Notes: generated by a model from the sequence alone, not told the origin. A stretch of DNA of 36,146 bases from Gammaproteobacteria bacterium (GCA_003646305.1 QNFJ01000003.1:1-36146); one strand, 5' to 3'; shown: positions 5,331-9,587, numbered from the stretch's first letter. Numbers and translations: made by a program.

Positions 5331-5933
5331 ATGAATAATCTTTATAGAACAGCCCAATTTTTATTGAGCACCCCAGACCTTAAAAGTGCCCCACCTGATG
5401 AGGGTCTTGAGGTTGCTTTTGCAGGGCGTTCAAATGCAGGAAAATCTAGCGCCATCAATGCAATTACCTCTCAGAAAGCCCTTGCTAGAACGAGCAAAAC
5501 ACCTGGGCGGACACAGCAGCTTGTCTTTTTTAACCTCGATGATGAACGGCGGCTCGTTGATCTTCCCGGATATGGGTACGCTAAGGTGTCACTAAAGATG
5601 CAGAAAAACTGGCAACTTAATATGCAGCGGTACTTAAACGAGCGCACAGCACTTAGAGGGCTGTTCTTGTTGATGGATATTCGCCGGCCGCTCACGCCAT
5701 TTGATGAGCAGATGATTGCCTGGACACAGAGTCGTCAACTCCCGCTGCATATTGCCCTGACCAAAGCAGACAAACTGAGCAGAGGGAACGCAAAAAGTAC
5801 GTTATTGAGCACCCGTGACCAGCTTGAAAAACAGGGTGTTCCCTGTTCTCTTCAGTTGTTTTCCGTGCCCGGGAAAATAGGCGTTGATGACGCGCATGAA
5901 ATCCTTGATGAGTGGCTAGTGGTGCGAAAATAA
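5331..5933 (+). CDS. engB: Ribosome biogenesis GTP-binding protein YihA/EngB
   Basis: GRSNAGKSS, SKTPGRT, DLPGYG and TKAD motifs. Divergent from c4 as usual. Confidence 0.96.
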   Translation: MNNLYRTAQFLLSTPDLKSAPPDEGLEVAFAGRSNAGKSSAINAITSQKALARTSKTPGRTQQLVFFNLDDERRLVDLPGYGYAKVSLKMQKNWQLNMQRYLNERTALRGLFLLMDIRRPLTPFDEQMIAWTQSRQLPLHIALTKADKLSRGNAKSTLLSTRDQLEKQGVPCSLQLFSVPGKIGVDDAHEILDEWLVVRK

Positions 5934-5980
5934 CTCAGGGTTGCAGCTTGTTGGAGCGACTTTTTATTTCTCAAAAATCC

Positions 5981-6008
5981 TTGACGTTGATTATTTGTAA
6001 TCTATACT
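5981..6008 (+). promoter_or_regulatory. Sigma70 promoter of the metK operon
   Basis: TTGACG (5981-5986)-N16-TATACT (6003-6008). Implied TSS near 6014-6015, just 5' of the aptamer. Confidence 0.7.
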
Positions 6009-6018
6009 TAGTTGGAGA

Positions 6019-6071
6019 AGCGCTGATTTGAACCGGCTTGCAGGCGCTATATAAATTTTGCTAAATATGGG
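6019..6071 (+). ncRNA. SAM-II (SAM_alpha) riboswitch aptamer
   Basis: AGCGCT-GATTT-GAA-CCG-GCTTGC-A-GGCGCT-ATATAAAT-TTT-GCTAAA-TAT-GGG. P1 is 6019-6024/6043-6048, L1 is GAUUU, pseudoknot UUGC pairs with GC(U)AA, and CCG pairs with UGG. Located upstream of metK. Confidence 0.88.
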
Positions 6072-6073
6072 TG

Positions 6074-6109
6074 AAAACCTGCTTTAGCATACGCTTAGCG
6101 GGTTTTTTT
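6074..6109 (+). terminator. Intrinsic terminator in the metK leader (riboswitch expression platform)
   Basis: AAAACCTGCT..AGC-ATAC-GCT..AGCGGG followed by T7 (6103-6109). Confidence 0.78.
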
Positions 6110-6165
6110 GTGCCTTGTGGGTTGATCGTGAAAGACGCTCGAAGGCTTTTGAAAAGGTTTGTAAC

Positions 6166-7326
6166 ATGACTGATAACTTTATATTTACCTCAGAATCTGT
6201 ATCAGAAGGACACCCTGACAAGGTGGCCGATCAGATCTCTGATGCGGTATTGGATGCGCTGCTTGAGCAAGACCCTGAGTCACGCGTGGCATGTGAAACG
6301 ATGGTTAAGACCGGCATGGTGATATTGGCGGGTGAAATCACCACCAGCGCTTGGGTAGACACCGAAGAGCTGGTTAGAAATGTTGTTAGAGAGATCGGTT
6401 ACGATGACCCCTCGATCGGTTTTGACTGGCAAAGCTGTGCGGTACTGAATGCGATTGGTAAGCAGTCACATGATATTGCAATGGGCGTTGATGAGGCTGA
6501 AGGACACGAGCAGGGAGCGGGTGACCAAGGGTTGATGTTTGGTTATGCCAGTAATGAGACTGATGTTCTGATGCCGGCGCCGATCACCTATTCTCACCGC
6601 CTTGTTGAGCGCCAAGCACAAGCCCGTAAGGATAAGACGCTCCCGTGGCTACGGCCCGATGCAAAAAGCCAAGTGACCATGCGCTATGAAAATGGCAAAC
6701 CGGTTGCGGTTGATGCGATTGTTCTTTCTACGCAGCACTCACCTGATATTGGCTTAAAGGAATTACAAGAAGCGATTATGGAAGAGGTTATTTTGCCGGT
6801 GATTCCCGCAGAATGGCTGCATAAAGAGACAAAATACCTGATTAACCCAACAGGCCAGTTCATTATTGGTGGCCCTGTAGGTGATTGTGGCTTAACAGGT
6901 CGTAAGATTATTGTGGATACTTATGGCGGTATGGCGCGTCATGGTGGGGGAGCATTTAGTGGTAAAGACCCCTCAAAAGTGGATCGTTCTGCTGCCTACA
7001 TGGGGCGCTATATTGCCAAGAATATTGTTGCAGCCGGTTTGGCGGAGCGTTGTGAAATTCAAATCTCTTATGCAATTGGTGTGGCAGAGCCCACCTCAAT
7101 CAGCATCGAGACTTTTGGAACGGGTAAAATAGGTGAAGAACGTTTGGTCGATATTGTGCGTGACCATTTTGAGATGCGCCCTAAAGGGTTGATTGAAATG
7201 TTAGATCTTAAGCGACCTATTTATAGACAGACTGCAGCGTATGGCCATTTTGGACGTACTGAAGCAGATTTTACTTGGGAAAGAACTGATAAAGCTGAAG
7301 CGCTTAAAGCGGCAGCCGGCATTTAG
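6166..7326 (+). CDS. metK: S-adenosylmethionine synthetase
   Basis: [28 protein letters not shown]. Start reassigned to ATG 6166. Confidence 0.98.
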
Positions 7327-7342
7327 AGATAAAGGAATTAAA

Positions 7343-8653
7343 ATGACACAACCGATAGAAAATTTAACACCTGATTATAAAGTAGCCGATATCTCCTTGG
7401 CTGAATGGGGTCATAAAGAGACCCGTATCGCTGAGATTGAAATGCCTGGGCTGATGGGACTAAGAGAAGAGTTTAAAGGACAGTTTCCTTTAAAAGGCGC
7501 GCGTATTGCCGGCTGCCTGCATATGACTATTCAGACAGCGGTACTGATTGAGACGTTGATCGACTTAGGTGCAGAAGTGCGCTGGTCTTCATGCAATATC
7601 TTTTCTACACAGGATCAAGCGGCTGCGTCGATCGCAGATCAAGGCATTCCTGTTTTTGCTTGGAAAGGTGAGAGTGAAGAGGAGTTTTTGTGGTGCATTG
7701 AGCAGACAATTTTTGGCCCTGATGATTGGCGTCCAAACCTGATTCTGGATGATGGCGGCGATTTGACGCAGATGATGCACGAGAAATACCCAGAACTTTT
7801 AGGTGATGTGCGTGGCCTATCAGAAGAGACCACAACCGGTGTTCACCGTCTGTATGAAATGGTCAAAGAGGGTAGTCTGAAGGTTCCAGCGATCAATGTG
7901 AATGATTCGGTTACAAAATCGAAATTCGATAACCTTTATGGTTGCCGTGAATCGTTGTTAGATGGGATTAAACGGGCAACCGATGTGATGATTGCCGGAA
8001 AAGTCTGTATCGTTTTAGGTTATGGCGATGTGGGTAAAGGCTGTGCGCAGGCCTTTAGAGGCATGGGTGCAACGGTTTGGGTTACAGAGATTGACCCCAT
8101 TTGTGCGTTGCAGGCAGCAATGGAAGGTTACCGTGTGGTTCGCATGGATGAAATTGCTGGGCAAGGTGATATTTTTGTCACCACAACCGGTAATGTAAGC
8201 GTGATTACCCATGACCATATGGCGGCAATGAAGAATGAGGCCATTGTTTGCAATATTGGCCACTTTGATTCTGAAATCGATATCGCCTCTGTTCGGGATT
8301 ATGAATGGGAAAATATCAAGCCACAGGTTGATCATGTGATCTTTCCAGATGGCAAGAAGCTGATCGTGCTGGCAGAAGGGCGTTTGGTAAACTTGGGTTG
8401 TGCAACAGGCCACCCTAGCTTTGTGATGTCGGCTTCATTTACCAATCAGGTGATGGCTCAGATTGAGTTATGGGAAAAAAGTGCAGACTATAAGAATGAC
8501 GTGTATGTTCTGCCTAAGCATCTTGATGAGAAAGTGGCTCGTTTTCACCTTGCAAAAGTGGGTGCAAACTTGACGGTACTGAGCCAAGAGCAGTCTGATT
8601 ATCTTGGACTTGCTGTTGAAGGTCCTTATAAGCCAGAGCATTACCGTTACTAG
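7343..8653 (+). CDS. ahcY: Adenosylhomocysteinase
   Basis: [44 protein letters not shown]-terminal [15 protein letters not shown] before ATG 7343. Confidence 0.98.
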
Positions 8654-8666
8654 GTTTTAATGGGTT

Positions 8667-8694
8667 GAGCCACCTCGACTTGTCGAGGTGGCTC
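8667..8694. repeat. Perfect 13-bp inverted repeat between ahcY and metF
   Basis: GAGCCACCTCGAC-TT-GTCGAGGTGGCTC, with no adjacent U-tract. Confidence 0.75.
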
Positions 8695-8720: not shown

Positions 8721-9587
8721 ATGGACAGTCAAAAACAATATAAACCGGTCTTTAGTTTTGAATTTTTCCCACCAAAATCTGAAGAGGCAGCTGGAAAGTT
8801 GGCCATTGTGCGTGATCGCCTTGTTGAGCTAAATCCTCGCTTTTTTTCTGTCACGTTTGGGGCCGGTGGCTCAACGCAAGCAAAGACCTTTGAGACGGTG
8901 CTAGAGATTCAGAAGGAGACTTCTGTTCGTGCAGCGCCGCATCTTTCCTGTGTTGGCTCAACGCGCGAGAATATCCGTAGCCTCCTGAACCAATACAAAG
9001 AGAATGATATTAACCAGATCGTTGCGCTGCGAGGGGATATCCCGTCAGGAATGCGCGATGCGGGAGAGTTTTGTTACGCTAATGAACTGGTTGAGTTTAT
9101 CCGTGAGGAGACGGGCGATCATTTCCATATTGAGGTGGCGGCCTATCCAGAATTTCATCCACAAGCGGCTAATGCCACTGCGGATCTGCAGAACTTTAAG
9201 CGCAAAGTAGAAGCGGGTGCGGATAGCGCCATTACGCAGTATTTTTACAATGCAGATAGTTACTTTCAGTTTGTTGAAAGCTGTGAAAAGCTGGGATTAG
9301 ACTTACCGATCGTGCCGGGCATTATGCCGGTCACAAACTACACGCAACTCGCCCGTTTTTCTGATATGTGTGGTGCAGAACTACCACGCTGGATGCGTAA
9401 ACGGCTTGAGGCGTATGGAGATGATCGCGACTCAATTCGGGCATTTGGTCAGGAAGTGGTCACAAGGCTCTGCGAGCGACTGCTTGAGCAGGGAGCGCCT
9501 GGATTACACTTTTACACCATGAACCAATCTAAGCCGATCTTGGCAATTTGTGAGAACCTGGATTTGGGAGGAAGTGGCGATGAGTGA
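8721..9587 (+). CDS. metF: Methylenetetrahydrofolate reductase
   Basis: FSFEFFPPK, SVTFGAGGS, VALRGD, AITQYFY, GLHFYTMN. Confidence 0.97.
   Translation: MDSQKQYKPVFSFEFFPPKSEEAAGKLAIVRDRLVELNPRFFSVTFGAGGSTQAKTFETVLEIQKETSVRAAPHLSCVGSTRENIRSLLNQYKENDINQIVALRGDIPSGMRDAGEFCYANELVEFIREETGDHFHIEVAAYPEFHPQAANATADLQNFKRKVEAGADSAITQYFYNADSYFQFVESCEKLGLDLPIVPGIMPVTNYTQLARFSDMCGAELPRWMRKRLEAYGDDRDSIRAFGQEVVTRLCERLLEQGAPGLHFYTMNQSKPILAICENLDLGGSGDE

Follow-up and report, generated by a model that had tools for sequence, protein, structure and literature searches.

SAM-II riboswitches sense S-adenosylmethionine (SAM) and are built from the structural elements P1, P2a, P2b, L1 and L3, the ligand bridging the L1-P2b triplex (PMC5352136). 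Corbino et al. (2005, PMC1273637) described near-consensus promoters a few nucleotides (nt) upstream of P1 in these elements and reported intrinsic terminators for many representatives, which function as OFF switches. According to the same work the class is mainly alpha-proteobacterial, with a few members in other proteobacteria (Coxiella burnetii, Bordetella bronchiseptica) and in Bacteroides, and the sporadic gamma-proteobacterial cases may reflect transfer. Terminators following SAM-II, which imply an OFF switch, are described as common (PMC1273637, PMC2258182); in work published since 2005 they often come after SAM-II aptamers, mostly in alpha- and beta-proteobacteria. For the S. meliloti metZ SAM-II riboswitch termination of transcription is predicted, and a small RNA (sRNA) of ~100 nt, the terminated metZ leader, was detected and rises in high SAM (Scheuer 2022, PMC9373788). 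In the SAM-II/SAM-V tandems described by Sherlock (2022, PMC9481103), SAM-II always precedes a terminator; the same source counts 44 tandems of SAM-II, in some of which a terminator comes first and control of the ribosome-binding site second. Riboswitches for S-adenosylhomocysteine (SAH) control ahcY-metF (Leyn et al.), and SAH control of ahcY is normally ON (PMC4239095). Here we analysed the leader of a metK-ahcY-metF gene cluster in a 36,146-nt stretch of DNA from a Gammaproteobacteria bacterium (GCA_003646305.1 QNFJ01000003.1:1-36146; the whole stretch is called the window below), for which an initial annotation had proposed a SAM-II riboswitch wired to a transcription terminator.

The metK leader and its alternative structures

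The element is very probably a SAM-II riboswitch with a terminator/antiterminator platform. Positions 6010-6085 match the Rfam model RF00521 (SAM_alpha, the SAM-II aptamer) with 35.0 bits and E 1.5e-6 in a 271-nt search, or E 3.2e-6 in a genome-wide search. All upper-case consensus blocks of the family are present (GAUUUG, GCUUGCAG and GCUAAA), and the P1 helix is found together with the GAUUUG and GCUUGC loop motifs. By this homology the aptamer would bind SAM. It also lies where SAM-II is expected, in a 5′ leader with a SAM synthetase as first gene; the ATG of metK at 6166 is 95 nt past the aptamer end at 6071. The promoter, aptamer, terminator, complementarity and metK start were all found where the initial annotation had placed them (Table 1).

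Between the aptamer and the open reading frame (ORF) lies a hairpin followed immediately by a U-tract. This terminator (6073-6109) has a folding energy of -16.5 kcal/mol (z -5.58), equalled by none of 200 shuffles. A simple terminator consensus scan of 5700-6400 returned no site, the stem being missed because it holds an internal loop. The tail of the aptamer can form another hairpin, which shares strands with both aptamer and terminator: UGCUAAA (6059-6065) is the exact reverse complement of UUUAGCA (6083-6089) in the terminator 5′ arm, as had been noticed from the sequence. This antiterminator (6059-6089) reaches -9.7 kcal/mol (z -3.44), a value attained by none of 200 shuffles, and the duplex of tail and arm reaches -7.9 against -3.9 +/- 1.7 in shuffles (p 0.029). 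Terminator and antiterminator are mutually exclusive because both use 6077-6089. Transcripts starting at ~6015 and ending at 6090 or 6095 fold into P1 plus the antiterminator and the full-length transcript (6015-6109) into P1 plus the terminator, and this fold order of the growing transcript gives the sequence of events that a kinetic switch needs.

The promoter hexamers agree with the consensus at 10 of 12 positions and form the sole promoter-like site in 5700-6400. Since 0.7 +/- 0.9 such sites are expected by chance per 700-nt stretch, the site alone is not significant and counts only together with its conservation. Transcription would start at ~6014-6016, 3-5 nt 5′ of P1.

Conservation was examined in G001, the one further species that represents the genus in the set of genomes compared. 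Its metK is preceded by the same leader, which scores 36.8 bits with RF00521, above the cut-off of the family. Over aptamer and terminator 91 of 92 positions are identical, the sole change being C6092 to T in the terminator loop, compared with 26/37 in the promoter, 38/59 in the spacer to the ATG, 27/51 in the upstream DNA and 255/301 in the first 300 nt of metK, or 53-70% in the flanking non-coding DNA and 85% in metK. The whole switch, antiterminator loop included, is more conserved than the metK coding sequence. Both promoter hexamers and their 16-nt spacing are kept, with a different spacer sequence. Among contigs from four DNA runs, variation was seen in a single low-depth contig, which differs by G6035A and by short deletions at 6011 and 6017.

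These features are best explained by the following mechanism. Transcription would start at about 6015 and P1 would form first. With SAM plentiful, the tail (6059-6072) would be held on the loop of P1, forming pseudoknot P2 and the L1 triplex; the proposed pairs are 6060-61/6040-41, 6064-65/6038-39 and 6068-70/6033-35, a register that we infer from H-type pseudoknot architecture and the alignment of relatives. Capture of the tail would leave 6077-6089 free to pair with 6093-6103, and the terminator hairpin with U7 would release a ~95-nt transcript, turning the operon OFF. With SAM scarce, the free tail would pair with 6077-6089 as soon as this stretch leaves the polymerase. The antiterminator would then already be in place when the terminator 3′ arm emerges, and the delayed terminator would allow read-through into metK. 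This wiring and its OFF logic, as first put forward from the sequence, are supported by the covariance-model match, the folds, the conservation in the sister species and the recurrence in many families described below.

Table 1. Features of the metK leader and neighbouring genes; positions are counted from the first letter of the window
Feature	Position	Strand	Details
Sigma-70-type promoter	5981-6008	+	TTGACG 5981-5986, 16 nt, TATACT 6003-6008
P1 hairpin of SAM-II aptamer	6019-6048	+	stem 6019-6024 with 6043-6048 (A-U, G-C, C-G, G-C, C-G, U.G)
L1, inside P1	6025-6031	+	GAUUUGA
5′ strand of pseudoknot P2, inside P1	6033-6041	+	CCGGCUUGC
L3 linker, A/U-rich	6049-6058	+	AUAUAAAUUU; aligns to conserved UUAAAcAA region of RF00521
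Aptamer 3′ tail, putative switching strand	6059-6072	+	UGCUAAAUAUGGGU
Antiterminator hairpin	6059-6089	+	6059-6065/6083-6089 (7 base pairs) and 6068-6072/6077-6081 (U.G, G.U, G-C, G-C, U-A)
Intrinsic terminator	6073-6109	+	stem 6078-6083/6097-6102 and 6086-6088/6093-6095, loop 6089-6092
Terminator flanks		+	U7 at 6103-6109; A-tract 6074-6077 upstream
metK Shine-Dalgarno	6153-6157	+	AAAGG
metK (SAM synthetase)	6166-7326	+	Pfam S-AdoMet_synt N, M and C domains; first gene behind the switch
ahcY (SAH hydrolase)	7344-8653	+	ATG 17 nt past metK stop
metF (methylenetetrahydrofolate reductase)	8721-9587	+	67 nt past ahcY
EngB-type GTPase gene	5331-5933	+	upstream of the leader

Directly after the U-tract, at 6110-6116, a motif RUGCCYG is kept in the window and 24 related loci. 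In these 25 loci T stands at position 2 in 21, G at position 3 in 18, C at position 5 in 20 and C or T at position 6 in 23, and GCCYGC can pair with the terminator 3′ arm GCGGG(C). On the minus strand under the element there is no ORF of at least 60 amino acids (aa). Also on the minus strand, 6074-6107 matched the 'SAM-II long loop' model with 12.7 bits (E 8.5); this match only mirrors the antiterminator complementarity, has no P1 and was rejected.

The platform in relatives and competing explanations

The platform was compared in an alignment-free set of 34 SAM-II loci (3 from the genus, 29 from the class and 2 metK loci). A hairpin of -6 kcal/mol or better with T5 or more was found within 115 nt in 29 of the 34. 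In 23 of these 29 terminator loci, the window included, the tail pairs with the terminator 5′ arm better than in 95% of 1000 shuffles; L034, L094, L102, L106, L107 and L114 failed this test. An alignment (A1) was then made from 25 loci, leaving out L034, L093, L096, L097, L101, L106, L107, L111 and L120, which had no conserved terminator or were very divergent.

In A1, P1, P2b and the terminator are together 94.6% paired, compared with 35-46% when the partners are slid. Six pairs change on both sides, and the covariation score is reached by none of 500 shuffles. Since the sequences are related and the set was chosen for the platform, the figures from A1 indicate that a common design is conserved and do not amount to independent proof. 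In P1 98.7% of the cells are paired, and changes on both sides affect 2 of 6 pairs; for the terminator helix the values are 93.6% and 4 of 11. The proposed P2b pairs are 92% paired, being invariant or broken and never compensatory, and the helix equivalent to the antiterminator is 78% paired. GAUUUG, UUGC and GCUAA are invariant in the 25 sequences.

Several observations weigh against this interpretation of the leader. The Rfam scan of the whole window at the gathering threshold gave no match, because the RF00521 score falls 1 bit short of the curated cut-off of 36 bits. In the proposed P2b the window makes 4 of 6 pairs and lacks two G-C pairs (columns 24-55 and 25-54) that are kept by 18 and 20 of 25 relatives; three more distal pairs seem to compensate, and the register appears shifted. 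The tail-to-arm duplex is weaker than the -11 to -17 kcal/mol found in most relatives. The antiterminator is much weaker than the terminator, which also in the ligand-free state forms the minimum-energy fold of the full-length leader; a high level of basal termination is therefore possible, and switching would depend on kinetics. As to the comparison itself, nine of the 34 loci were set aside before aligning and the sequences are related; only 3 of the 12 antiterminator pairs change on both sides, so that support for this helix comes mostly from conservation.

We weighed four other explanations. The first, which is compatible with control in cis, is that the ~95-nt terminated leader is a functional sRNA acting in trans or a SAM titrator. 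Riboswitch-derived sRNAs, RZ and RA2, do accumulate and are stabilised in high SAM (PMC9373788), and the whole 92 nt are 99% conserved between the two species. A cis switch fully explains this conservation, and Scheuer et al. report having found no MetK interaction (PMC9373788), so we regard an sRNA function as unlikely.

The second explanation takes the aptamer as real and the terminator as a constitutive attenuator not controlled by SAM, which would act on RNA stability or in some other way. The energy difference of 6.8 kcal/mol in favour of the terminator and the ligand-free fold just mentioned would suit it, and Scheuer (2022, PMC9373788) describes an S. meliloti metA SAM-II with a strong downstream terminator and no predictable riboswitch-driven antiterminator. 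A constitutive attenuator is nonetheless hard to reconcile with a tail that complements the terminator 5′ arm over 7 + 5 base pairs, with the recurrence of this complementarity at the 23 loci, which come from many families, and with a spacer, forming the antiterminator loop, that is as conserved as the aptamer. We consider it very unlikely.

A variant aptamer sensing a ligand other than SAM is more improbable still. SAH, for instance, would suit an operon holding ahcY and metF, the more so as SAH riboswitches occur in half of the nearest metK loci (see below), and the tail (GCUAAAUAUGG instead of GCUAAAGCGAGG) departs from the class consensus right after GCUAAA. However, the core consensus blocks of RF00521 are intact, and Rfam writes the variable position that follows GCUAAA in lower case. 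Terminator-forming OFF logic agrees with feedback of SAM on metK, in contrast to the normally ON control of ahcY by SAH (PMC4239095), and the element matches neither RF01057 nor other SAM/SAH families. Finally, a chance resemblance, with an ordinary promoter and terminator or a leader-peptide attenuator and no ligand sensing, is scarcely credible: in its favour stand the score under the Rfam cut-off, a weak Trp_leader match (only 15 bits, E 1.7) and a 6-codon ORF at 6067-6087 that lacks a Shine-Dalgarno and is absent from relatives, against which are set the E values of the RF00521 match, the near-complete conservation of the whole element and the homologous elements before Met/SAM genes in dozens of families.

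SAM-II in the class, before metK and elsewhere in the genome

The SAM-II riboswitch with its platform was next placed among its relatives. The class was taken as Gammaproteobacteria in the wide GTDB sense, as the nearest named relatives of MetK, gammaproteobacterial metagenome-assembled genomes (MAGs), would indicate. It was sampled with 151 genomes over ~150 families, a match being RF00521 at E <= 1e-4. SAM-II was found in 42 of the 151, 13 of these 42 lying above the cut-off, with nearly always one match per genome. In the order sample 2 of 41 genomes matched, namely that of the window (G000) and G001. Downstream genes were surveyed for the best-scoring 29 of the 42 matches in other class genomes. 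The first gene is metZ in 21 of these 29, metN in 2 and metY, metX, metK or metF in 1 each, making 27 loci before one of these six genes; in the remaining 2 it belongs to no known family. In most of these 29 loci the platform is that of the window and consists of GCUAAAGCGAGG, ACCUGCUUUAGC after a short spacer, GCUGAGCGGG after a loop, and U7. The module that couples SAM-II to a terminator is found widely in this class.

To look for metK leaders specifically, a covariance model (R1) built from the 25 aligned loci was run on 80 loci of the nearest MetK relatives. An aptamer lies directly upstream of metK in 7 of the 80 (E <= 0.004): in a Sulfuriflexus MAG, whose locus (L017) was part of the R1 training set, Fangia hongkongensis, three Cysteiniphilum, Caedibacter taeniospiralis and a Francisella sp. 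A regular-expression screen of the same loci found 2, an undercount relative to R1. The metK locus of a Thioglobus MAG (L034) gave an R1 E value of 0.22. The Sulfuriflexus and Thioglobus metK leaders end in terminators. Since R1 matches precede metK in several lineages, metK under SAM-II is recurrent. In the papers searched, we found no dedicated report of SAM-II before metK in gammaproteobacteria; Figure 2c or the supplementary alignment of Corbino et al. (2005) may list metK.

The Fangia, Cysteiniphilum, Caedibacter and Francisella loci (L036, L037, L038, L045, L049 and L082; ~1375-1470) carry a SAM-II variant, GAUUUAA..ACAACUUGCGGGCGAC, and in their platform two partners compete for CCUUUUAGC, the GCUAAAG tail and the AAAAGG ribosome-binding site. 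This arrangement suggests translational control of metK by SAM-II in these leaders.

The initial annotation had held transcriptional SAM-II control to have some precedent but to be uncommon. This is not supported: terminators are reported for many SAM-II representatives (PMC1273637), and the terminated metZ leader was detected in S. meliloti (PMC9373788). The case for surprise fails because terminator coupling is commonly reported, SAM-II is common in the taxon and metK is a recurrent target. The mechanism is not new, terminator coupling being a commonly reported SAM-II arrangement. What is particular to the window is modest: a score just under the cut-off, a weakened antiterminator, an apparently shifted P2, and one SAM switch where neighbours use SAH sensing. 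The analysis annotates correctly a leader that falls 1 bit short of the standard Rfam threshold.

In the genome of the window, R1 finds four aptamers at three loci; the aptamer of the window and the first of the two on contig C103 were in its training set. On C103 (L001, 193-1599) a SAM-II element with a near-identical terminator lies at 200-295 (35.3 bits with RF00521). Behind it, at 304-371, comes a second aptamer, a divergent one that scores 44.4 bits with R1 and 16.3 bits (E 0.087) with RF00521. A GCUAAAG/CUUUAGC hairpin stands 3′ of the second aptamer. Two tandem paralogous ORFs of 195 aa follow, 49% identical and with twin-arginine translocation (Tat) signals; they have no Pfam or NCBIfam family beyond the Tat signal and no protein atlas match, and a search of 300 other class genomes with this query turned up no relative.

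The same tandem design, with SAM-II and a terminator followed by a variant aptamer CCGAGUUAA..ACAACUUGCAGGGCG..GCUAAAG, was seen in five other genomes of the order (G035, G037, G373, G376 and G419; loci L125-L129, L132, L133, L135 and L136), four times in G037. It stands before differing small ORFs, at L135 before one with a Tat signal. These loci fit the published 'bi-mechanism' tandem SAM-II class.

The third locus is on contig C283, where an aptamer at 2566-2646 (L137, 1501-1581) scores 39.8 bits with R1 and is missed by RF00521. Its platform is UGGAG/CUCCA adjoining the ribosome-binding site, which it looks as if it sequesters. Downstream of the aptamer an orphan protein is encoded, at least 160 aa long, and the same aptamer lies upstream of a 43%-identical homologue of 201 aa from another family of the order (L130, G440); no Pfam family matches either protein.

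We consider it possible, if somewhat doubtful, that in this genus a single SAM-sensing OFF switch took over metK-ahcY-metF, replacing the SAH-sensing ON switches of its neighbours, and that with the two other SAM-II loci it makes up a small SAM regulon including genes of unknown function. If so, a SAM regulon with orphan genes would hint at unrecognised SAM-linked activities, possibly periplasmic. The orphan genes behind the other SAM-II elements may merit more attention than the metK leader.

The operon and comparison with known systems

The true start of metK is ATG 6166 (386 aa), as in MetK of relatives. A start at TTG 6115, giving a 403-aa ORF, was rejected as an over-extension, MetK of relatives beginning at ATG. 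As the gap between metK and ahcY is only 17 nt, the two are taken to be co-transcribed, and metF is probably in the same transcript. The switch would control metK-ahcY and probably metF too. As had been claimed, no SAH riboswitch is evident: at the gathering threshold neither RF01057 nor any other Rfam family matched within the window, and the short metK-ahcY gap is again to be noted. A single SAM-II switch over metK-ahcY(-metF) with no SAH riboswitch is mildly unusual, and so, mildly, is the biology it implies in the genus, with ahcY and probably metF tied to SAM feedback instead of SAH induction. Between ahcY and metF, at 8667-8694, lies a perfect 12-base-pair GC-rich hairpin (GAGCCACCTCGA / TCGAGGTGGCTC), neither strand of which has a U-tract; it may serve to stabilise the mRNA or as a processing site.

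The element shares with the SAM-II class (the metA element, RF00521; Corbino et al. 2005; structure 2QWY) P1, the GAUUUG L1, GCUUGC, the A-rich L3 and the GCUAAA tail, as well as the near-consensus promoter a few nt before P1, a terminator between the proposed P2 and the ORF, as in an OFF switch, and a methionine/SAM gene downstream. It differs by UAUGG after GCUAAA, where the alpha type has gAGGCC and GCGAGG is common in this class, and by having metK as first gene instead of metA, metX, metY or metZ. With the module common in the class (SAM-II and CCUGCUUUAGC...GCGGG-U7, mostly before metZ) it has in common the aptamer, the terminator sequence, an antiterminator from tail to 5′ arm, U7 and GUGCC after the U-tract. 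Among the 29 class loci the module stands before metZ far more often than before metK, which it precedes once, whereas in the window the first gene is metK, the antiterminator is weaker and the P2 register seems shifted.

The S. meliloti metZ riboswitch (sRNA RZ) is likewise a SAM-II element with a Rho-independent terminator directly behind it, and its product of ~100 nt compares with the ~95 nt predicted here. It belongs to an alphaproteobacterium and to metZ and has experimental support, whereas the switch here is a predicted one and belongs to the metK-ahcY-metF operon. The SAM-I (S-box) metK leaders of Firmicutes have the logic proposed here, in which an aptamer stabilised by SAM does away with the antiterminator and lets the terminator form, and also the same target gene; their four-way junction is an aptamer fold unrelated to the H-type pseudoknot and belongs to a different phylum.

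Control of ahcY-metF(-metK) by the SAH riboswitch (RF01057) or SahR concerns the same methyl-cycle genes as the switch of the window. The SAH riboswitch, in contrast, senses SAH and turns genes ON. Rfam detects SAH riboswitches in 10 of the 20 nearest metK loci, 7 after metK and before the next gene and 3 before metK. SAM_alpha is present in 1 of the 20, that of the Sulfuriflexus MAG, which has both elements: SAM-II before metK and a SAH riboswitch before the next gene, whereas in the window one SAM-II element stands over both genes.

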